Shown piece by piece: positions 4,086 to 38,891 of a stretch of 64,000 bases of DNA. The DNA is taken from the NCBI GenBank assembly GCA_047285535.1, contig JBJBDC010000001.1:2240136-2304135 (forward strand). Reading direction: 5' to 3'. Below the pieces are notes generated by a model that did not search any database, had not been told where the DNA came from, and saw nothing but the letters and a program-made list of their open reading frames with translations. The translations under genes were made by a program, and so were the position numbers. The DNA comes from Synechococcus sp. GTDB lineage: Bacteria; Cyanobacteriota; Cyanobacteriia; PCC-6307; Cyanobiaceae. The number at the start of each line of letters is the position of its first letter. Position 1 is the first letter of the stretch.

Positions 4086-5090
4086 TCAAAGCCCGGCATC
4101 TAGAAGCTGCTTAGTTGCGTTTTCGAGGACATCAACTCCAGCATTTGCTCTTTGAGCTTTGGTGGTTAGTTGATGTCTCCAATGCTTTGCTCCTGGTACA
4201 CCTTCCACAATCTGGACCAGGTGGCGACATATATCCCAAATTCGTCCTCCTCGTTGAAGATGACGTTCAGCGTGGGGAAGCAGTCCGATCAGCACATCTG
4301 AAGCAAGCAACTTCTGAGGAGCGTCGCCGAAGATCAATCTGTCGATGTTTTTCCAGCGCATGGGATGGGCATAGGCGGCGCGTCCGACCATGGCTCCATC
4401 ACAGTGCTTTAAGGCTTTAAGGCAATCATCAGGAGTTTCAAGACCACCATTCAATTCGATGGTGAGCTCAGGTCTGGATTCTTTTAAAGCGATGACCCGA
4501 TCATGCTGAAGGGCAGGAATTGTGCGGTTTTGTTTGGGGTCCAATCCCTCTAGCCATGCTTTTCGAGCATGCACTGAAAAACGCATGGCACCGGCGGCAG
4601 ACACCTGATCCACAAATCTTCTTAGTAGGTCATCACTGTCGAGATCATTAATCCCAACTCGATGTTTGACAGTGACTGAAAGGGATGATGCTCTAACCAT
4701 GGCTTCTACGCAGCGCGCGACGGTCTCAGGTTCTGCCATTAGGCAAGCCCCGAAATTTCCCGCTTGAACTCGAGGGCTAGGACAGCCCACATTGAGATTG
4801 ATTTCGTCGTAACCCCAATCTGCGGCCATCCGAGTTGCTTCAGCTAGCAATGCAGGATCGTCGCCCCCTACCTGCAGTGCTAGGGGATGTTCCTCTGGAT
4901 CGAAGTCCAGCAGGCGTTCACGGCGCGTGCTGTGATGCAGTGCCTGCGCTACCACCATCTCGCTGTAAAGCAGGCTTTTTTTGCTGATCTGGCGCATCAG
5001 CATGCGGAAATGCCGATCAGTGCAGTCCAGCATGGGTGCAACACTGAAGCGCCAGGCGGGTTCCCGATCAGGGTTCAGTGGGGAATCCAT
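4086..5090 (-). CDS. dusA: tRNA dihydrouridine(20/20a) synthase
   Basis: FSVAPMLDCTDRHFR, INLNVGCPS, VHARKAW motifs; start taken at MDSPL (ORF open to 5153). Confidence 0.93.
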   Translation of the reverse strand: MDSPLNPDREPAWRFSVAPMLDCTDRHFRMLMRQISKKSLLYSEMVVAQALHHSTRRERLLDFDPEEHPLALQVGGDDPALLAEATRMAADWGYDEINLNVGCPSPRVQAGNFGACLMAEPETVARCVEAMVRASSLSVTVKHRVGINDLDSDDLLRRFVDQVSAAGAMRFSVHARKAWLEGLDPKQNRTIPALQHDRVIALKESRPELTIELNGGLETPDDCLKALKHCDGAMVGRAAYAHPMRWKNIDRLIFGDAPQKLLASDVLIGLLPHAERHLQRGGRIWDICRHLVQIVEGVPGAKHWRHQLTTKAQRANAGVDVLENATKQLLDAGL

Positions 5091-6911: not shown

Positions 6912-8142
6912 ACATCGGTAGATACATCGCCAGTAGGATTGAGCCCACAATTCCTCCCACAACAACAATCATTGCTGGCTCAAGCATGGAGGTTAGTGCT
7001 TTGACAGATGTGGAGACTTCGTCTTCATAGAAGTCGGCAACTTTGCTTAGCATTCGATCCATTTCGCCGGTTTCTTCTCCGATCGAGAGCATACTGAGAG
7101 CCATGCTTGGCAATACCTTTTGACGGGTGAGAGCTGTGCTGAGCAATACACCCTCTTGAACCTGGGCCCGGGATTCCAGAATTGCGTCAGAGATGATGGA
7201 ATTGCCTGCGGTTTCACTGGAGATTTCAAGAGACATCAGGATCGGAACGCCGGCGCGTGTAAGTGAGCTGAAGATGCGACAGAACTGAGCGGTGGCCGTT
7301 TTCATGATGAGATCGCCAAATAATGGCAGCTTAAGTATTAATTTGTCAAGTTTTCTTCGACCGTTGTATGTGTTGTAATAACGACTGATTATCCAGATAA
7401 TCCCCAATAGAAAGCCGGCGAAAACAAGTGAGGCTGAAGAACGAAGTAAACCACTTAAATCCACCATTAATTGAGTAAATAGGGGTAATTCAGCACCAAG
7501 ATCTTCGAAGATTCCGGCGAAGGTTGGAATCAAAAAGATCGTCATTCCTAGAAACACGAGAATGGCGATCACCAGTACAGCGATCGGATATCCCAAGGCA
7601 CCTTTGATCTGGTTCTGGAGTCTGGCGTTGTCTTCCAGAAGCTTTGCAAGTCGTTTCAGGGATTCATCTAGAACACCTCCGGCTTCGCCTGCTTCGACCA
7701 TCGCGATGGTGAGCTGGTCGAAGACTTTGGGCCACAGGCGCATGGCTGCTGCCATCGCCGTGCCTTGATTCACCTCTAGTCCCACTGCAGTGAGAGCCTT
7801 TTTGAACATCGGGAGTTTCTGCTGCGTGGCCATGAGGTCAAGGCTGCGTACGATCGGCACTCCTGCATCCACAAGCGCGGCCAATTTGCTTGCCCAAATG
7901 GCTTTTTCTTTGACTCCAGGTGGCTTTTGAAAGGCTTCTCCCAGATCCATCGACAACCAACTTCCTGACGAGCTTCCATCAACGTTTTTGGAATCGGATC
8001 TGGCTTGGTCTTGGCGAAGGTCATCCGCTTTAATTCCCCGCCTCCTCAACAGTCGTTTAGCTGACACAGCATCACTCGCCTTGATTGTCACAGTGCGCGG
8101 CTGCCCTGTGCTTGAGGTGTAGGTGGCGGTGAAAGAAACCAT
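6886..8142 (-). CDS. pilC: Type IV pilus inner-membrane platform protein (GspF family)
   Basis: Two T2SSF domains (AGEAGGVL, IGEETGEMD, LEPAMIV); downstream of pilB-pilT. Confidence 0.93.
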   Translation of the reverse strand: MVSFTATYTSSTGQPRTVTIKASDAVSAKRLLRRRGIKADDLRQDQARSDSKNVDGSSSGSWLSMDLGEAFQKPPGVKEKAIWASKLAALVDAGVPIVRSLDLMATQQKLPMFKKALTAVGLEVNQGTAMAAAMRLWPKVFDQLTIAMVEAGEAGGVLDESLKRLAKLLEDNARLQNQIKGALGYPIAVLVIAILVFLGMTIFLIPTFAGIFEDLGAELPLFTQLMVDLSGLLRSSASLVFAGFLLGIIWIISRYYNTYNGRRKLDKLILKLPLFGDLIMKTATAQFCRIFSSLTRAGVPILMSLEISSETAGNSIISDAILESRAQVQEGVLLSTALTRQKVLPSMALSMLSIGEETGEMDRMLSKVADFYEDEVSTSVKALTSMLEPAMIVVVGGIVGSILLAMYLPMFTVFDQIQ

Positions 8143-30749: not shown

Positions 30750-32336
30750 ATGTCATCAGTCCAGAGCAAAGGTCATCGCAAGCCGGCCATTGTCATTCTT
30801 GATTTCGGTTCCCAGTATTCGGAACTGATTGCACGCCGAGTGCGGGAGACGGAGGTCTTTTCGGTGGTGTTGAGCCATACCACCAGCGCGGAGGAATTAC
30901 GCAAGTTGTCTCCTCGTGGAATCATCCTCAGCGGAGGTCCAAGTTCGGTGTATGCCGAAGGAGCTCCCCTTTGTGATTCAGCGATTTGGGATCTGGGTAT
31001 TCCAGTGCTGGGGGTGTGTTACGGGATGCAGTTGATGGTGCAGCAACTTGGTGGTCAGGTTGTCGCGGCCACGGGTAAAGCTGAATACGGCAAGGCTCCA
31101 CTTGTGGTGGATGACCCCACCGATCTCCTCACCAATGTGGAAAACAAATCCACAATGTGGATGAGCCACGGCGATTCCGTTGAAGCCTTGCCAGAAGGCT
31201 TTGTGCGTTTGGCACATACAGCCAATACTCCTGAGGCGGCGATTGCTAATCACAATCGTCATTTATATGGTGTTCAATTTCATCCTGAAGTGGTTCATTC
31301 CATTTTTGGGATGGCAATGATTCGCAATTTTGTTTATCACATTTGTGGTTGCGAACCGGATTGGACTACGGATGCATTCATTGATGAAGCTGTCGCTCAT
31401 GTGCGCGAGCAAGTTGGTAGTAAGAGAGTGCTTTTGGCTCTCTCAGGAGGGGTTGATTCTTCAACCCTTGCCTTTCTTTTGAAAAAGGCGATTGGAGATC
31501 AGCTCACCTGCATGTTCATCGATCAGGGCTTCATGCGTAAGGGGGAGCCTGAATTCTTGATGGAGTTCTTTGATCAGAAATTTAATATTCATGTTGAATA
31601 CATCAGTGCGCGTGAACGGTTTCTCAAGAAACTTGATGGCATTACCGATCCAGAAGACAAACGCAAAATTATCGGGACGGAATTCATTCGTGTATTTGAA
31701 GAGGAAAGTCGCCGTCTTGGACCCTTTGATTACCTAGCCCAGGGCACGCTCTATCCGGATGTGATCGAGAGCGCAGGTACCAACGTGGATCCCAAATCCG
31801 GTGAACGGGTGGCAGTGAAGATCAAGAGCCATCACAACGTGGGTGGTCTACCTAAGGATCTGCAGTTCAAGTTGGTGGAGCCCCTGCGCAGACTCTTTAA
31901 AGATGAAGTGCGTAAGGTGGGCCGATCGCTTGGTTTGCCTGAGGAGATCGTGCGTCGTCATCCTTTTCCAGGTCCAGGTCTGGCGATTCGCATCCTGGGC
32001 GAAGTCACGGAAGAAAAACTCGATTGTTTGCGCGATGCCGATCTGATCGTCCGCGAGGAGGTGAGTGCTGCTGGGCTTTATCACGACATTTGGCAGGCGT
32101 TTGCTGTTCTTCTCCCCGTGCGCTCGGTGGGTGTCATGGGTGACAAGCGCACCTACGCCTGGCCAATCGTGCTGCGCTGCGTTTCCAGTGAAGACGGTAT
32201 GACCGCGGATTGGTCCAGGCTTCCCTATGACCTGATGGAAACCATTTCCAATCGGATCGTGAATGAGGTGAAAGGAGTCAATCGCGTGGTGATGGACATC
32301 ACCAGTAAGCCTCCTGGAACAATTGAGTGGGAATAG
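30750..32336 (+). CDS. guaA: GMP synthase (glutamine-hydrolysing)
   Basis: [27 protein letters not shown] and KPPGTIEWE. Confidence 0.98.
32322..32336 (+). repeat. Putative attL: 3' end of guaA (ATTGAGTGGGAATAG)
   Basis: 13/15 identical to 38402-38416, with an exact 11-mer GAGTGGGAATA. Confidence 0.7.
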
Positions 32337-32438
32337 TTCAGGGGGTCAAATCCCATCTGATACTAAAAAATTAGGTTCCACCTTGCACCTTGTCACCTTC
32401 TCTATCGAGAAGTCGTTGACCAGAGGTTTTCTCTACAC

Positions 32439-32785
32439 GTGGGAATCAAGAACAATCGAGGCAACAATCAACGGACCTATGCCCTCTTTGAGGAACTCAG
32501 GCACTTGAGGGTGTTTCCTCAAGCAGAGGTCCCTTACATCTACAGGCGTCTTGATCGTCAGCAGGATTTGCTCGTGGAAGAGCGGGCGTATCAAGTTCGT
32601 GTTCCTGTGCCAATGGAGAAAGGCGTCAGGAAATCCCTGAGGACTTCAGACAGGACCACTGCCATTGAGCGAGCAGAGGACTTAGTGCTTGAACTCAAGA
32701 GTGCCCTGAGAGCGGGAGGTAATGCCTCCAGGGTTACTGCTGAGGATTTAGTCAGTCGCTTCCTCAAGACCAAGCGTGCTCGTGC
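32439..32785 (+). pseudogene. Truncated N-terminal arm-binding region of a tyrosine integrase
   Basis: YQVRVPVP..VRKSLRTSD...A...A pattern directly after guaA; no catalytic domain in frame, ORF runs on to a stop at 32864. Confidence 0.65.
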
Positions 32786-33077
32786 TCTTTTTCAATCAAT
32801 TTCAATCAATCGCCCACAAAGACCGAAGGACTCATCTGCGTCCACTCTCGATTTAGTCCTTTGACAAGAAGTCTACGTAATTTTGTGACTGAATTGGTCT
32901 TTCATGCACCTCTTCTCACTCTTTTCGTAGGACATAACAGACTGAGTTGTATCGTGAAGGGTGTTCATTAAGAGAAATTCAGCACATTTCTGGTAGCAAA
33001 TCCCCTCAGTCTTCCAGGAGTATCTGGAAATTGAAAAAGAAGAGATTGTTGAAAAGTTCCATCAAAAATGGCGCTAG
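32786..33077 (+). pseudogene. Decayed C-terminal catalytic part of a Xer-like tyrosine recombinase
   Basis: Hand translation across frameshifts and stops: FDKK/LRNF/CD*IGLSCTSSHSFRRT*QTELYREGCSLREIQHISGSKS/FQEYLEIEKEE..WR*; HxxR at 32917-32928 and Tyr at 33021. Confidence 0.75.
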
Positions 33078-33256
33078 AACTAGCTTAATCTTTAATTGCT
33101 GACACTAAGGGAAGTCTGTTGAGGGCTTAAATTGTCTGAGCAGATGTGGCGATGGGTTTTATATCATTCAAATCTCACAGGCAATTGCTTTGTTTAAAGG
33201 GAATAAGCTTGGGTTTAATATAAAACGAAATCGTGTCTTGTTGATGTGATAGCAAA

Positions 33257-34357
33257 TCAGTTGCTTATTGCGCCAGATGCTTGTATGTATGAACCAATCT
33301 TTTTGCTGCCACTAGGATTTGTGTGGATGAAGTCGTATACGTCTTCTGGGCCAAGAATATTTTTAAGATACATGGGTAAGACAACTACTTTCTCTGTTGA
33401 GGGAAGTGTTTTTAGCGCTTCATCTTGAGTGGCATATATAGTAGCGAGTTTGTTGCATATGGTACCAGTAGAATCTCTGTTGGGATGAATATCTGTCCCG
33501 TAATATTTGGATTTGAATATGCATCCAGGCGCTTGCTGCTGAACAAGTATAATTTTTGCCCTCGGAAAATTATTCCTTGTCTGCGTAATTAATTCAAAGA
33601 AAATTTGCTTGTAATTGGAATAATTAATTGAGAAATCTCCTGAGAATTTCTTTCCGTCGTTAGGGCTTAAAAAGTTGGAACTTGTCCTTCCATGCATTGC
33701 AAGTGATACTTTCTTTCTCTCTTCATTCGTTTTGAACATTCTTGAAGTTGATTTATATATATTTAAGAGTCGTGGGTAGAAAAAGGAATATGTAGACAGG
33801 AATCCTTTGATGAAACTTGAAATATTCTGAGGTTTGTCATAAGCATTTAAGTCGTCCTCTAGAAGTCTTGGATCGTTGACCCCGAGATAAAAAATAATCA
33901 TGCTGACCATTTCCTGGTTCAGAGATGTTGAGTGCCAAGAATTAATTGAGGCAAGGTGTCCATATGTCGACTGACCATCCACTCCTCCGTTGATGAAATC
34001 ATAAGAGGGAAATTCTTTGTCCAAATAATCTTGCCAAGTCTCACCATCAGTGATGTAGCGCTGGTCAGTAGTAGAACCTCCTATCGTTAAAATTATTTTT
34101 TTTCTTGAATTCTTATCTTTGCCCCTGTATCCATCTTTGTCACGAGTATATGAAATTTTAACTGGATTACTGGATCCATATAGGTTGCGGGCATCGTAAT
34201 GAATGGTTTTATCTTTGATTAAACCTGGAATGGTTGCCGGTGGGTTTCTACGAGTCACTAGGTTTTTCCAGTCGCCAATAAACAATTCAATTAGTGCCAA
34301 TAATAACGCAAAGAAAAGAATGTTCAGCGAAAGGACTTTAGTGTGTGCTGATTTCAT
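33257..34357 (-). CDS. SGNH/GDSL hydrolase family protein with N-terminal membrane anchor
   Basis: Block I IGGSTT, block II INGGVDGQST, block III YLGVND and block V DFIH. Confidence 0.8.
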   Translation of the reverse strand: MKSAHTKVLSLNILFFALLLALIELFIGDWKNLVTRRNPPATIPGLIKDKTIHYDARNLYGSSNPVKISYTRDKDGYRGKDKNSRKKIILTIGGSTTDQRYITDGETWQDYLDKEFPSYDFINGGVDGQSTYGHLASINSWHSTSLNQEMVSMIIFYLGVNDPRLLEDDLNAYDKPQNISSFIKGFLSTYSFFYPRLLNIYKSTSRMFKTNEERKKVSLAMHGRTSSNFLSPNDGKKFSGDFSINYSNYKQIFFELITQTRNNFPRAKIILVQQQAPGCIFKSKYYGTDIHPNRDSTGTICNKLATIYATQDEALKTLPSTEKVVVLPMYLKNILGPEDVYDFIHTNPSGSKKIGSYIQASGAISN

Positions 34358-34361
34358 TTGC

Positions 34362-34523
34362 TTAAAAAATCGAATAAATGAATGGCGCTACAACTGATCC
34401 CTGGGTAAACACTATGAGCGCTCCCATAAGGAGAATTGTGATGATCAAGGGTGCCAACCAGTACTTTTTGCGAACTTTCAGAAAGTCCCAGATCTCTTTG
34501 ATGAGATCAAGAAATGCTTCCAT
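34362..34523 (-). CDS. SxtK-like (DUF5989) small membrane protein, 53 aa, absent from the ORF track
   Basis: MEAFLDLIKEIWDFLKVRKKYWLAPLIITILLMGALIVFTQGSVVAPFIYSIF*; RKKxWLxP..APFIY pattern; fills the operon gap. Confidence 0.88.
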   Translation of the reverse strand: MEAFLDLIKEIWDFLKVRKKYWLAPLIITILLMGALIVFTQGSVVAPFIYSIF

Positions 34524-34526
34524 GGT

Positions 34527-34925
34527 TCAAAAGGTGCGGGTGAGGTCAGTGCGATGGTCTTGGCAGTTTTCTCTGTAAGTTTTCTCACCTTTTCGCCGTC
34601 TTCTTAATGGGTCATATCCAGTAAGGCGCATGACATAAGCGATGGGTTGAAGAACAACAATGAACACAAGACCCAGGATGACGTGACTGTTAACCCATCC
34701 AAGAGCGTGTCCTAGTGACATCCAAACCTTATAAGGGTAGTGAAGTAGGCGGGGTTCTGTAAGGCCAAGGATCAATCCTGGAATCCCTACCCATACAGTC
34801 CATGCTCTGAATTCATGTCCGAAGAGTGAAGGGAGTAACCAACCGATAAGGATGGGGAATCCAAATCCGATAAGCAGTCCGAACTCGCGAAGTTGTTTTC
34901 GGGAAATTGTTTCTTTCATGATCAA
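34527..34925 (-). CDS. SxtJ-like membrane protein
   Basis: LREFG, WMSLGHALGWVNS and GYDPLRR patterns; overlaps the carbamoyltransferase stop by 4 bp. Confidence 0.82.
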   Translation of the reverse strand: MIMKETISRKQLREFGLLIGFGFPILIGWLLPSLFGHEFRAWTVWVGIPGLILGLTEPRLLHYPYKVWMSLGHALGWVNSHVILGLVFIVVLQPIAYVMRLTGYDPLRRRRKGEKTYRENCQDHRTDLTRTF

Positions 34926-36775
34926 TCGAGTTCAAACTCCTCCATCCAGGTCTCATCTTTTTCAACTTTTGGTTGTTCGCTTTTGAAAAGGATCTGGTTT
35001 TGGAGAACCAGGACATCCATTTCTGTCCTCATGAAGCATCTATAAGCATCTCGAGGTGTACAGACAATAGGTTCACCTCTCACATTGAAGGAAGTATTGA
35101 CGATGGTAGGACAACCAGTCTTTCGCTTGAAGGCACTGATTAAATTGTAATAACGGGGATTCGTTGTCTTGCTAACTGTTTGAACCCTTGCTGAATAGTC
35201 CACATGAGTGATTGCAGGCAGTGAAGATCGCGGGATATTCAGTTTTTCGATACCAAAGAGTTTGTCTTCTTCCTCTGTCATTTGCTTGCAGAGTTCTTTT
35301 TTGACTGGAGCAACCAGAAGCATGTAGGGACTCTTGGCATTCATTTCAAACTGATTGCTGACATCTTCTTCCAGAACCGATGGAGCAAAGGGACGGAAAC
35401 TCTCTCGGTACTTGATTTTGAGGTTCATCACGCTCTGCATCTTCTGATTACGCGGGTCCCCAATGATGGAGCGACCACCTAGTGCTCTTGGTCCAAACTC
35501 CATAGGACCGTTGAACCAACCAATCACATGACCTTTCTCAAGTTCTTCTGCTAGACGCTCAAATAACTCTGGATCAATATGAGTGTGGAATGGCGCATTA
35601 ATCTGTTTAAGATAGTTACTGATGTCATCGTTGCTGAACTCAGGACCCAAGTAGGTTCCTTTCATTGAGTCGTTCATGTTGACGACTCTTTCCTGTTCTT
35701 GATGTTGATGCCATCCCACCAAGGCGGCACCCAGTGCTGAACCCGCATCACCGCTGGCAGGTTGAATCCAGATGTCGTCAAAGATTTTCTCTTGAAGCAA
35801 TTTCCCATTTGCAACGCAATTCAGAGCGACGCCACCAGCAAGACAGAGATTCTTGATTCCTGTCTCTTTCCTAAGTGATCTTGCCAGTTTGAGGATGATC
35901 TCTTCTGTGACGACCTGGATCGATGCCGCCAGGTCCATGTGGAACTGGGTGAGTTCTGTTTCTCCCTTGCGTGGTGGTCTACCAAAAAGTTTGTGGAACT
36001 TCCGTCCTGTCATGCGGAATCCACGATGGTATTTGAAGTAACTAATGTCGAGGTGGAAGGTCCCGTCCTCTTTGATATCAATCAGGTTGTCCTTGATCTG
36101 ATCGACATAGTTGGGTTCTCCGTAGGGAGCAAGACCCATGAGTTTATATTCACCAGAATTCACCTTGAACCCGCAGTAGTAGGTGAATGCTGAGTAAAGA
36201 AGACCCAGGGAGTGAGGAAAACTGATTTCCCAAAGGGGTTCGATGTTCTTACCCTTACCAATCCAGGCAGAGGTGGTTGCCCACTCACCAACGCCATCCA
36301 TACAGAGGACGACTGATTCTTCCAATGGACTTGGATAAAAGGCAGCAGCAGCGTGTGAAAGATGATGTTCTGAAAAAAGCAGGTTTGGAATATGGGTTGA
36401 ATTAGTGCCGAATGATTCTTGAACTTCTTTGAGGTTCTTCTTGAGTTCATTCTTTAAAAAGAGTTTTTCCTTTAACCAGACTTGCATCGCCGCTACAAAG
36501 GATCTGCTTCCTCTTGGTGCTGCACCCAGATAAGTCTCTAGAAGACGTTCAAAGGTCAATAGAGGTTTTTCGTAGTAAACGACCTCCTTGAGGTCTGAAA
36601 GATTGATGTCCTGTGATTTCAGGCAATATGAAACGGCATTCTTTGGAAATCGTGAATCGTGCTTTTTTCTGGAGAATCGTTCTTCTTGTGCTGCTGCAAT
36701 GATTTCGCCGTTTTTTAAAAGTGCGGCAGCGCTGTCGTGGTAATAACAAGATAGTCCAAGAATATATTCATCCAT
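34922..36775 (-). CDS. O-carbamoyltransferase (NodU/CmcH/TobZ family, SxtI-like)
   Basis: YHDSAAAL, QEERFSRKKH, EHHLSHA, GEYKLMGLAPYG, AGGVALNC, EFGPRALG, KYRESFRPFAP, HVDYSAR and NTSFNVRGEP. Confidence 0.95.
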   Translation of the reverse strand: MDEYILGLSCYYHDSAAALLKNGEIIAAAQEERFSRKKHDSRFPKNAVSYCLKSQDINLSDLKEVVYYEKPLLTFERLLETYLGAAPRGSRSFVAAMQVWLKEKLFLKNELKKNLKEVQESFGTNSTHIPNLLFSEHHLSHAAAAFYPSPLEESVVLCMDGVGEWATTSAWIGKGKNIEPLWEISFPHSLGLLYSAFTYYCGFKVNSGEYKLMGLAPYGEPNYVDQIKDNLIDIKEDGTFHLDISYFKYHRGFRMTGRKFHKLFGRPPRKGETELTQFHMDLAASIQVVTEEIILKLARSLRKETGIKNLCLAGGVALNCVANGKLLQEKIFDDIWIQPASGDAGSALGAALVGWHQHQEQERVVNMNDSMKGTYLGPEFSNDDISNYLKQINAPFHTHIDPELFERLAEELEKGHVIGWFNGPMEFGPRALGGRSIIGDPRNQKMQSVMNLKIKYRESFRPFAPSVLEEDVSNQFEMNAKSPYMLLVAPVKKELCKQMTEEEDKLFGIEKLNIPRSSLPAITHVDYSARVQTVSKTTNPRYYNLISAFKRKTGCPTIVNTSFNVRGEPIVCTPRDAYRCFMRTEMDVLVLQNQILFKSEQPKVEKDETWMEEFELD

Positions 36776-36796
36776 TTAAAAAGGTATGAGTGAATA

Positions 36797-36819
36797 TGCT
36801 TGAGGTGCTTGAGATTATA
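36797..36819 (-). promoter_or_regulatory. Putative -10 box (TATAAT) and adjacent direct repeat upstream of the carbamoyltransferase operon
   Basis: ATTATA at 36814-36819 (TATAAT on the minus strand) ~40 bp before the ATG; TGCTTGAG twice at 36797 and 36806; no clear -35. Confidence 0.4.
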
Positions 36820-37398
36820 CCTTGAAAACTGCTCCCAAACTCTTTGAGACCGCCTCAACAACCATTGTGATTCCTAGATTGGTCAAGGTTTATTCGTTGC
36901 ACGCATAGTCTCAAGTCTTGCTAGGAGTTCTTCAAATCATGGTCGAAATCCTCTTCTTGAGTTCATTGTTCTTGAATAATTTTCAATTTTACTCGTTGGA
37001 TGCGTTGCTCTAGTCGATGACATCTTTGCTATCAGGGCCTGGATACCAACCCTTGTTTTTCTTCTTCAGACCGAAGATGAGCATTCCCAGAGAGATGCCA
37101 TGACCACAACGCTTCAGGAACATCTCTCCTTCTTCTGCCAACTCCTCTTGAGTCAACGCGTTGGAGACAGCAGTGATTATGTCTAACTCCGACTAAGTAC
37201 GCTACAGACTTTTAGTTCAGCGTTGGACCTCTCGTTTAGTCAATTATGAGGGACATGACTTCTAGAAAGGGTATTAAAATTGCCGCAGTAGAACTGGTTG
37301 AGAGATTTGTGAGTGATTCTGGTTCCCTTTGAGTCGTGGACGTATGGATCTCGCATCCAGTCGCTCCTTTGAGTTGTCCTCGTCAAGACGCGAGTGCA

Positions 37399-37504
37399 TC
37401 AATCAGTCGCTCTCTTTACATCGTAGTGGAAGTAGTGCTCTTTCACATACTGGATGCTTGTATCGTAGTTGTTGCCAACTGTCGCGATCGGAACACCGCT
37501 CTCT
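37399..37504 (-). pseudogene. Possible extreme C-terminal fragment of a tyrosine integrase
   Basis: ESGVPIATVGNNYDTSIQYVKEHYFHYDVKRATD resembles the GVxIxxLAxNxGTSxxxIxxHYxH end of large integrases. Confidence 0.5.
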
Positions 37505-38165
37505 TCAGATCCCAAGAGTTTTGACCATCCGTGAGACCAAAGATGGATGAAATTGGTACCACGTTCTCTTTTCATCCCAGAAGTGTTTAGTACGTTGCAG
37601 ATTCCACCCAATGACATTTCTTGGGATCTGAGGGGAATGAGAAGGTGGGAGATCTTCTGGTAGTTCTGACGATTTTTCTCCTTCTTCGCTTTTACTAGAC
37701 GATCAAGGTTCCATTGAGGGGTTCCTAACTTGACCCCTCTGTACTTTAGAGACAGGAGACCTGACTTTGATCTCTGACTAATGGAGTCTTTCTCCTGCTC
37801 AGACAGATAGGAATAGATATGGAGTTGAAATTTGGTTGAGTGTGGTAGTGAGGAGACCACCAGTTCCTAATCCTTGTCCTCCATTAGTTTTGAGACAAAA
37901 CTGACTTTTCTGGATATACGGTCGAGTTTGGAAACGATCAGGATTCCCTTTATTTGCTTGACCAGTTCAATCGACTTCAGGAGTTAAGGACGTGAGTCGT
38001 CAGAACCCGAATGAACTTCTGCGAATCTCCCAACCACCTCATAGGGAGTCTCCTGGTGGTAGGTCTCTAGGTAGTGGTTGATATCCTTCTCTTGTCCCTC
38101 TCACCCCAAACCTGGTCTACCCTGTCCCGAGTCGAGACGCGGAGGTGCTTCGAATGTTTCTTCAT
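37505..38165 (-). pseudogene. Serine recombinase (resolvase family) pseudogene
   Basis: HLRVSTR/QGRPGLG*EGQ..EVHSGSDDSRP*L..LIVSKLDRISR..*..LSEQE..ISQRSKSGL..RGVKLG../FHPSLVSRM; stops at 38101-03, 37984-86 and 37867-69 plus two frameshifts. Confidence 0.85.
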
Positions 38166-38401
38166 TGGTTCTCCTCTCCTGAAATGAAACGACCGTATTA
38201 AATAGGACAAAGATACGTTTTCTCTGCGTAGAGAACCTGTAGAGGTCGTTCAGGCTCTTCAATTGTCACAGTTTTACGAGATCTCTATGCTCCGACTCGT
38301 TTTTTGCCGTCTGTCCCCACTGCAACTGGAATTCCTCAGTTTCACTTGATCTGACCTTCTTCCGGTCTCCTTTTCCTCGCTAGACCCAGGAGATCCAATC
38401 C

Positions 38402-38416
38402 ATCGAGTGGGAATAA
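38402..38416 (+). repeat. Putative attR: copy of the guaA 3' end (ATCGAGTGGGAATAA, IEWE*)
   Basis: Direct repeat of 32322-32336; both differences are silent (ATT/ATC, TAG/TAA); lies in non-coding DNA just past the recombinase remnant. Confidence 0.7.
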
Positions 38417-38891
38417 CAGCTGAGGCTATGAGCTGAAAAGGCGTGCTTTTGTTTGCCAGCTTTGATTAGTTTTTGTGCCTTCAGTGCACCTTTGCTTGCT
38501 AATCTGTCTGTTTAAGTGGTGGATTGAACGGGGCATGAGTATTGATCAGTTACGGCTTCTTCTTCACCTAATCAAACTCCTTGATCAGCAGCCTTGAAAA
38601 AGTGAATGGAAATGAGTGCGTTTTGATGCTTCTGGTTAAGTGTTAGGAAAGAAGGTGGTGTTTGGGATAAGGCGTTAGCGATGTAATGCAAGAACTTCTG
38701 CTGTCAGATAAGTTACTTGATCATTTGGTTGTGATCTGTGTGCATAAACTGGTTCAATCTATGACCACCAAGGTATAAAATATGTAGATTTGATGATCAG
38801 TTTCTTTCCGCCGAGTCAAGCAATCCCAAGCTCCATGGCTAAGAGATAAGCCCATAAGGTTTGGAAGGTTAAAGATTAAAATCTACTTTTT

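Follow-up and report, generated by a model that had tools for sequence, protein, structure and literature searches.

A relic serine recombinase gene in Synechococcus, probably inherited from a lineage of GpC-free, alanine-free integrative elements

Introduction

Among the described mobile elements of picocyanobacteria, the closest to the DNA treated here are the tycheposons and cryptic elements of Prochlorococcus and Synechococcus, which are described as combining a tyrosine recombinase with replication genes and, in some cases, a small serine recombinase (bioRxiv 10.1101/2020.12.28.424599). The preprint text that was searched does not mention dinucleotide, alanine, guaA, GMP synthase or rolling. 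In this study we analyzed a small serine recombinase relic at positions 37505..38165, minus strand, of a 64,000-nucleotide stretch of a Synechococcus sp. genome (assembly GCA_047285535.1, contig JBJBDC010000001.1, positions 2,240,136 to 2,304,135; hereafter the window), which is depleted in the dinucleotide GpC and whose reconstructed protein has almost no alanine (Ala). We consider it likely that the relic is the decayed recombinase gene of an integrative, probably rolling-circle element of marine Synechococcus, and that its GpC poverty was inherited from a GpC-free donor lineage. In general description these elements resemble the tycheposons, being small, site-specific integrative elements of picocyanobacteria.

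Depletion of short words is known from other settings. Restriction-site avoidance concerns sites of 4-6 bp and is usually partial, and other cases include CpG in vertebrate viruses (ZAP), the TC footprints of APOBEC, ACA-less mRNAs (MazF) and GCU-poor mRNAs (MqsR).

Results

The relic gene and its GpC content

The features of the relic, read from its sequence and from an alignment with relatives, are as follows (positions here and below are those of the window unless a locus is named).

37505..38165, minus strand: small serine recombinase pseudogene (PF00239, E 1.1e-13) with three nonsense codons, two 1-bp deletions, 7 GpC and 2 Ala
38165-38163, minus strand: start codon ATG
Between 38126 and 38125, minus strand: 1-bp deletion
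38103-38101, minus strand: in-frame stop TGA
37986-37984, minus strand: in-frame stop TAA
37869-37867, minus strand: in-frame stop TAG
Between 37553 and 37552, minus strand: 1-bp deletion
37507-37505, minus strand: native stop

The read-through translation matched PF00239 at E 1.1e-13 with 51.9 bits (cut-off 23.3), and it contained, as the preliminary description of this DNA had counted, only two Ala, in the contexts FAEV and VKAKKE. The reading frame of this copy is broken and the relic itself is an ordinary pseudogene; the recombinase genes of eight related loci described below (L008-L015) are intact. The window copy has kept LRVSTRD, 5' of the first frameshift, and the corresponding YLRVSTREQ is nearly invariant in 13 Ala-free homologues (R9, S11, T12 and Q15 invariant; V10, R13 and E14 in at least 90%); the serine of the R-V-S-T motif we take to be the recombinase nucleophile.

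The stretch 37505-38165 (661 bp, 46.0% GC) holds 7 GpC where base composition predicts about 35 (odds 0.20) and 19 CpG (odds 0.54), and the hand count of 7 and about 19 given earlier proved correct. The full 64-kb window has GpC odds of 1.10, and this stretch is the lowest among all its 660-bp sliding windows. The source genome (G000) is a single contig of 3,025,339 bp (50.6% GC, GpC ratio 1.14) and was scanned throughout in 660-bp windows at a step of 60. The median of the GpC odds was 1.13 and the minimum 0.20, and the sole merged region below 0.45 was C1:2277361-2278560, which is window 37226-38425. Among the 10,271 genome windows at 43-49% GC the 0.1 percentile was 0.51, far above the relic, which is the most GpC-poor place of the genome. 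The flanking core genes, previously called GpC-rich, are instead GpC-normal for this genome (guaA 0.99, PBP2 1.10, genome 1.14).

Ala-poor homologues

A protein search with the recombinase gave 393 homologues, of which 120 were listed, 119 without the window's own open reading frame (ORF); all intact homologues among the matches listed had a precomputed PF00239 domain. No more than 2 Ala were present in 16 of these 119, all of them at least 71% identical to the relic, and a fragment (P0059) had 4 Ala. Apart from P0015, treated below, the other listed homologues, at 42-55% identity, had 19-36 Ala, and those from GpC-normal elements (~50-60% identity) were Ala-rich at the same columns. Since the close homologues that are intact are themselves Ala-poor, the Ala-free state is a property of a clade of intact proteins and not of the pseudogene. 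One protein, P0015 (219 aa, 11 Ala), has an N-terminal half that is Ala-normal and a C-terminal half like the Ala-free clade; it looks chimeric, which suggests recombination between GpC-normal and GpC-free lineages.

Three sites had been proposed at which Ser stands where resolvases usually have Ala. Two of them are supported by the alignment, IYSYLSEQE and KSGLLSLK matching IYAALAEQE and KAALAAAK in Ala-rich relatives, and the third, IVSKLDR, is not, given that Ala-rich relatives also read VVSKLDR. The preliminary description had further named, as something that would speak against its proposal, close and equally Ala-poor homologues from GpC-normal genomes; the DNA encoding the Ala-poor homologues was in fact itself GpC-free or GpC-poor, so that this objection fails.

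GpC-free circular elements

A metagenome scan seeded with the alignment of the Ala-free clade led to 8 close loci. Five of the related loci are metagenome contigs with at most a single GpC:

L011: 7642 bp, 0 GpC
L012: 7641 bp, 0 GpC
L013: 8439 bp, 1 GpC
L014: 2359 bp, 0 GpC
L015: 8349 bp, 0 GpC

On base frequencies, L011 should hold about 360 GpC and L013 about 410. The one GpC present in L013, at position 7892, makes the sole Ala codon of a 319-aa protein (p319) and reads GG in three other DNA runs, and none of 40 listed L013 variants (40 of 239) creates a GpC. The depletion is specific, in that no tetranucleotide without GC is absent from the circles and GC alone is missing, in all 16 flanking contexts; CpG is ordinary (odds ~0.65-0.70) and the most enriched dinucleotides are GA/TC (odds ~1.5), with GT at 1.2 and AC at 1.05. 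L011, L012 and L013 each have terminal overlaps of 123 bp, and contigs of 3 DNA runs join L013 position 8316 back to position 1; these overlaps and end-to-start joints therefore make the elements circles of ~7.5 and 8.3 kb. Words of L013 were present in 20 runs from 16 studies, with at least half of the words in 8 runs. The DNA identity of the relic to the circles L013 and L011 is 77-79%, the intact relatives on circular contigs being 77-85% identical overall, and intact chromosomal copies (L008-L010) are 83-88% identical to the relic and its flanks over 857-1054 bp.

The genes of the circles are as follows.

Tyrosine integrase, 452 aa: PF00589 5.2e-12, phrog_1 1.1e-30
Small serine recombinase: PF00239
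p319, 319 aa: no family match
p239, 239-248 aa: with short conserved neighbours s52, s75 and s83
Walker-A protein, 627 aa, L013 only: phrog_28855
Repeat protein, 206 aa, L013 only

Every circle ORF examined has zero Ala. Searches of the element ORFs against Pfam, PHROGs, NCBIfam and PADLOC returned only the two recombinases, phrog_28855 and a single marginal row from PADLOC. The lineage of mobile elements avoiding GpC that had been put forward from the relic alone is represented by whole circles with zero GpC and Ala-free proteomes, as well as by an integrated element (G264) described below.

Several further observations concern the occurrence of these circles in samples. A contig of run X5 lacks L013:525-1286 (762 bp) and with it the gene of the 206-aa repeat protein; because of this skip, cargo differs among near-identical circles. 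In the metatranscriptome run X18, 15 of 30 L013 bins were covered, which is not proof of transcription since DNA may contaminate the library. At L013 junctions 4628, 4584 and 4169, contigs of runs X1 and X3 pass from host-like, GpC-containing DNA into the element at its attachment (att) core, and one of these junction contigs terminates in guaA-type sequence. Judged from such junctions, these samples seem to contain integrated copies alongside the circles.

Maintenance of the GpC-free state

The ratios of nonsynonymous to synonymous divergence (dN/dS) for the four genes compared between L011 and L013 were:

Recombinase: dN/dS 0.047, dS 0.43
p319: dN/dS 0.090, dS 0.47
Integrase: dN/dS 0.134, dS 0.57
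p239: dN/dS 0.135, dS saturated

These low ratios place the Ala-free proteins under purifying selection. When an equal number of random substitutions was placed in the four genes of L011, in a crude simulation with uniform sites and composition-weighted bases, means of 22.7, 9.9, 15.8 and 22.6 GpC were gained (~71), and the number observed was 1. Because some 70 GpC are expected at the divergence of L011 and L013 and one was seen, the GpC-free state appears to be actively maintained.

GpC-normal homologues of the integrase, p319 and recombinase were found in genomes of the same genus (G063 and G014) at 51-61% amino acid identity, and these have 55-74 GpC and 26-32 Ala per gene. In five GpC-normal genes, GpC occurs at 144 sites in codon phase 1-2, at 75 in phase 2-3 and at 95 in phase 3|1, none of which is left in the GpC-free genes, and the non-coding DNA of the circles, the region of the element's attachment site (attP) included, is equally GpC-free. 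Given that GpC has gone from every codon phase and from non-coding DNA, the constraint is on the dinucleotide and not on alanine. Of the 139 aligned Ala columns, 37 have S in the GpC-free genes, 15 have G, 13 each have E and T, 11 have V and 7 have I; R, P and D occur at 6 each, L, Q and C at 5 each, N, K and H at 3 each, and M at 1. GGC was replaced by GGA 13 times and by GGT 2 times. Although the distances are saturated, this spectrum does not look like that of cytosine deamination.

In the donor lineage every GCN Ala codon would have been replaced, most often by Ser, and the lineage itself would consist of 4.8-8.3-kb elements that tolerate no GpC in any codon phase, strand or non-coding DNA. 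The earlier proposal of a donor under counter-selection against GpC strong enough to recode its protein accordingly gains support from three sides: the circles with zero GpC, the purifying selection on their Ala-free proteins, and the Ala-rich homologues in GpC-normal DNA.

The guaA site and the island around the relic

The relic lies in an island next to guaA, the features of which are as follows.

30750..32336, plus strand: guaA, GMP synthase (Pfam GATase 3.5e-46, GMP_synt_C 1.5e-45)
32322..32354, plus strand: core of the left attachment site (attL), comprising the last guaA codons (IEWE*) and 18 bp, with no GpC, 32/33 identical to L013 4600-4632
32439..32864, plus strand: tyrosine integrase of the element family, N-terminal part, aligning with the L013 integrase at 59% identity over 113 aa (E 1e-44)
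33257-36775: cargo, comprising a GDSL-like lipase, an SxtJ-family protein (PF19588, 1.1e-54) and a carbamoyltransferase
37399..37504, minus strand: probable 3' fragment of a tyrosine integrase (..YVKEHYFHY..), weakly matching L013 integrase residues 392-424 (E 2e-4, 21%)
38166..38401, minus strand: upstream region of the recombinase, element-derived, 6 GpC in 236 bp (odds 0.49)
38337-38349, upstream of the relic: decayed copy of the CAGTTTCACGTGA repeat, reading CAGTTTCACTTGA
38402..38416, plus strand: remnant ATCGAGTGGGAATAA of the core of the right attachment site (attR), a direct repeat of the guaA end 32322-32336

The window GuaA falls in a 90% cluster with a protein named GMP synthase from Synechococcus sp. 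ROS8604. In the free circle the attP core, L013 4600-4632, lies within the non-coding DNA that separates the integrase gene from the recombinase gene. The pattern ATCGAGTGGGAATAA has 2 matches in the window, both in the same orientation, and none of 100 shuffles gave two or more. The elements encode an integrase domain, their attP core matches the guaA end at 32 of 33 bp, and direct repeats lie at 32322 and 38402; on these sequence grounds the 3' end of guaA is assigned as the chromosomal attachment site of the element family. Between the att cores the order is integrase N-terminal fragment, cargo, integrase 3' fragment, relic and the upstream region of the relic, and attR is positioned upstream of the recombinase, as in the layout of L011. 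Supporting this comparison, L011 4052-4838 matches window 38287-37504 at 79%, and L011 3964-4016 matches 38349-38297 at 79%. The layout of the island is, by this alignment, that expected of an element integrated in the L011 arrangement.

The segment 37399-37504, directly downstream of the relic, has GpC odds of 1.03; it is kept beside the recombinase in L008 and L010, and related DNA is present in G015, G016 and G019. The integrase fragment 32439-32864 belongs to an Ala-containing, GpC-normal lineage, and the segment 32337-32864 has GpC odds of 0.80. The GpC-poor part of the island is therefore confined to 37505 to ~38400 (gene 0.20, upstream region 0.49), with the rest at 0.61-1.03, and because of this confinement the island is a mosaic. 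An element would have inserted at the 3' end of guaA, of which the right arm alone would survive in the 6.1-kb remnant 32322-38416.

Two other observations on GpC were made in and around the island. The SxtJ-family and carbamoyltransferase genes, with GpC odds of 0.61 and 0.79, are below the 1st percentile (0.82) of 1-kb windows of the same GC class. Outside the island, the only 1-kb windows with GpC odds <0.7 were at G000:C1:7001-8000 and 461501-463000 (minimum 0.67).

GpC regained on the chromosome

The intact recombinase genes of L008-L010 have 4-5 GpC and lie beside GpC-containing flanks. The chromosomal copies share GpC at four columns, three of them in 4/4 copies and one in 3/4, and none of these GpC is present in the free elements; one of these shared, regained GpC makes the Ala codon in VEAKKE. 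A further 3 GpC are private to the window copy, among them that of the Ala codon of FAEV. As the chromosomal copies both share and add derived GpC, the pressure against GpC does not act on DNA stranded in the chromosome, and it would act in an extrachromosomal or transfer phase. Loss of GpC in place, after inactivation of the gene, is ruled out, given that the intact homologues hold fewer GpC and that the extra ones of the window copy are derived.

The p239 protein and the wider lineage

The p239 protein had no Pfam match. Its invariant motifs are T103, E105, R106 and H107 (TxERH), H131-x-N133, which is not a canonical HUH, and Y215-x-x-K218. The AlphaFold model (predicted local distance difference test, pLDDT, 79) had as its best VIA match SIRV1 ORF119 (Z 7.8, root-mean-square deviation 2.8, 111 aligned), followed by MVM NS1 (Z 6.5), AAV5 Rep (Z 6.0) and IS200-type transposases, and Foldseek gave weak rows (E 0.03-0.1) for parvovirus NS1, AAV Rep and pMV158 RepB. 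From this modelled fold we regard p239 as probably an HUH-type initiator of rolling-circle replication.

The 62 detectable homologues of p239, which reach down to 50% identity, each have no more than 4 Ala, and 58 of them no more than 2. A search of a representative library with the p239 alignment gave 36 clusters with 0-5.4% Ala, which do not draw the boundary of the Ala-free clade. For p319, 11 of 120 listed homologues had 2 Ala or fewer, 3 had 3 Ala and the rest 7-33, the Ala-free clade occurring only at 81% identity or above; the names on these homologues were Synechococcus and Prochlorococcus. The AlphaFold model of p319 is all-helical (pLDDT 83, predicted template modelling score 0.44), had no Foldseek match in PDB at E <= 0.001, and in ESM Atlas met only 'hypothetical' viral-labelled clusters. 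No match was found by tblastn for p319 or p239 in the phage collection, or for p239 in the plasmid collection, and neither the recombinase P0003 nor the p239 alignment had relatives in the viral-contig or genome-contig collections.

A six-frame search of 401 genomes of the family with the p239 profile gave matches in 12, the strongest of them in G264, which holds an apparently intact integrated element:

L049:7528-12324 (G264:C11): integrated GpC-free element, a 4798-bp GpC-free run

This element is 38-47% GC within DNA of 63-72% GC and GpC odds of 1.1-1.4 (genome ~68% GC). It is flanked by a 20-bp direct repeat, AGTAGTGGTTCCCCACTTTG, which is the 3' end of the gene of a 580-aa flavoprotein, and its att core, like that of guaA, has no GpC. 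It encodes an integrase (25% identical to that of the circles), p239 (69%), four or five short ORFs and two signal-peptide proteins, and all of its proteins are Ala-free. The GpC-free lineage thus appears, from the divergence of these genes, to be deep and to occur on more than one backbone.

More distant relatives of p239, at 32-35% identity in G307, G222 and G259, have 3-8 Ala and 12-20 GpC. Because these relatives carry GpC and Ala, the Rep family of p239 is not tied to GpC exclusion, and p239 is ruled out as its cause.

A probably invertible attP segment

A 357-bp segment at L013 ~4465-4821 is inverted relative to L011 3682-4038, at 83% identity, with both flanks colinear; the region around it is L013:4462-4822 and L011:3677-4064. 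It lies between the integrase and recombinase genes and carries the att core together with four repeats of the CAGTTTCACGTGA type, each 11-13 bp and containing CACGTG (L013:4523-4734, L011:3765-3988), which may be protein-binding sites. The inverted repeats that bound the segment are TACGAAATCTCTAC and GTAGAGAT.TCGTA. Opposite-strand joints at 4464/4822 and 4475/4805 were found in runs X1 and X3 at a depth of 2.1-2.9, with colinear contigs at 5-11. The nearest solved relatives of the recombinase are Sin (Tn552 bin3), Gin and Tn3 resolvase (E 9e-6 to 1e-4). Based on this arrangement, the intact recombinase probably inverts the 357-bp segment, which would reverse attP relative to the element.

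The segment is comparable to those of the Hin, Gin and Pin invertases in that a small serine recombinase gene adjoins a segment that has inverted repeats at its ends and occurs in either orientation. It differs in that the similarity to solved invertases is weak and that the flipped segment holds an attP core, not a promoter or tail-fibre exon. A probably invertible attP segment beside the recombinase gene is an unusual arrangement.

Discussion

What excludes GpC

In view of the fact that the absence of GpC is absolute and has been kept through a dS of ~0.5, an attack on DNA that is close to lethal per site fits best. Our tentative preference, at somewhat less than even odds, is for a GpC-directed, per-site near-lethal attack on element DNA by a nuclease or a comparable agent, which hosts, phages or a competitor could supply. 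We speculate, on an equally provisional footing, that picocyanobacteria, phages or rival elements own an undescribed DNA activity that targets bare GpC (a nuclease, a glycosylase or a modification-dependent killer), and that one integrative rolling-circle lineage escaped it by purging GpC.

Several points count against this interpretation or against the evidence beneath it. With Pfam, PHROGs, NCBIfam and PADLOC the element proteins gave no match to a nuclease, methyltransferase or defence family, and no PF00145 C5 methyltransferase was found in the window's genome or in G264, a search of one enzyme class in two hosts; the GC-recognising restriction-modification system or element-encoded modifier suggested in the preliminary description was thus not confirmed. 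GpC-normal sisters with the same integrase, p319 and recombinase families occur at the same site in the same genus. Since these sisters share the att site and the genus, GpC exclusion is not required by the lifestyle and is a lineage-specific adaptation. The integrase fragment in the window is GpC-normal, so that a whole GpC-free element may never have been intact here. The assignment of p239 to the HUH initiators was made on middling scores (Z 7.8; Foldseek E 0.03-0.1), the simulation of GpC gain is crude, and the opposite-strand joints, accepted at 85% likeness and at low depth, may stem from co-occurring relatives and not from clonal flipping. Lastly, the DNA evidence consists of 5 metagenome contigs (~3 distinct elements) and 1 genome.

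A purely mutational origin is one alternative, in which GpC-context editing or deamination of single-stranded intermediates would convert each new GpC and the proteins would merely be filtered. With a probable HUH initiator a single-stranded stage is plausible, and the total loss of a short motif is the outcome of a very efficient context mutator. We nevertheless consider this drive unlikely, as at conserved residues GGC became GGA 13 times against GGT 2 times, Ala was replaced by Ser (G to T) at 37 columns but by Val at 11 and by Thr at 13, and GA/TC are the most enriched dinucleotides (~1.5) against GT at 1.2 and AC at 1.05, although at saturated distances the replacement counts are a weak test.

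Exclusion of GpC could also be self-inflicted, the element turning a GpC-directed nuclease or modifier of its own on the DNA of a host, phage or rival and being immune for want of a target. The proteins without a known family (s52, s75, s83, p319 and the signal-peptide proteins of G264) leave room for such a weapon, and the pressure lapses in stranded chromosomal fragments. Yet the smallest element (4.8 kb) encodes, besides its integrase and the Rep-like p239, no more than two signal-peptide proteins and four or five short ORFs, relatives of p239, s52 and s75 reside in GpC-containing islands, p319 and the recombinase have GpC-normal relatives, and no nuclease or methyltransferase signature is present on the elements, which together make a weapon of the element's own improbable.

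Avoidance at the level of RNA appears to us more doubtful again. Transcripts without GC would escape a GC-specific endoribonuclease, for which the MqsR toxin, which cuts at GCU, offers a comparison. GpC is self-complementary, so that avoidance in RNA from both strands would look alike in DNA, and metatranscriptome contigs cover parts of L013, a weak point as DNA can occur in RNA libraries. However, the non-coding DNA, including the attP region, is equally GpC-free, and a single cut per mRNA would probably not be deadly enough to keep ~400 sites at zero through a dS of ~0.5.

Avoidance of alanine, for example to escape an agent that attacks tRNA-Ala or its synthetase, GpC loss then being secondary, would account for element proteins that all lack Ala, but 170 of the 314 GpC sites of the GpC-normal homologues lie outside Ala codons and are gone too, as they are from non-coding DNA, so alanine as the primary target is ruled out and this reading is given almost no weight. 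Hardly any probability attaches either to local decay, for all that the window copy is a pseudogene, or to an assembly or sequencing artefact such as a misread modified base, which is rejected since the same pattern is met again in a closed genome, in another genome and in contigs of several projects, with L013 words in 20 runs from 16 studies, and since a misread base would give one type of replacement where many are seen.

Significance and comparison with known systems

If the elements are what they seem, they would be natural replicons from which one dinucleotide has been wholly removed and in which an abundant amino acid is absent from every protein, although their integrases, recombinases and replication proteins remain under purifying selection. 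Under the proposed escape from a GpC-directed attack, the lineage would live with a 19-amino-acid proteome that still functions and still diversifies. They would offer a natural reduced-alphabet experiment on which residues replace alanine across whole folds. A GpC-reading agent in globally important phototrophs would be a new defence or weapon, and possibly a useful enzyme. Long GpC-free runs are in addition a computable signature for finding such elements and for dating immobilised relics. No description of GpC-free or Ala-free replicons was found in a search of freely accessible full texts and of the main text of the tycheposon preprint, and as far as could be determined such elements are unreported.

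Enzymes that read little more than GpC exist in nature, namely the chlorella-virus methyltransferase M.CviPI and nuclease CviJI (RG^CY). They are like the proposed agent in this respect but belong to viruses of algae, and no counterpart was detected here, both of the host genomes tested lacking PF00145. The CpG/ZAP, APOBEC, MazF and MqsR cases share with the GpC-free elements the depletion of a very short word through a host or toxin activity that recognises it. In those cases, in contrast, depletion is statistical and no amino acid is lost, the words CpG, TC and ACA differ from GpC, and the constraint on the GpC-free elements reaches into non-coding DNA. Restriction-site avoidance in phages and plasmids is similar in that a mobile element loses a short word as if each site were lethal and the host chromosome keeps it; the present elements differ from it in that a 2-bp word is absent over whole replicons and one amino acid has been removed from the proteome.

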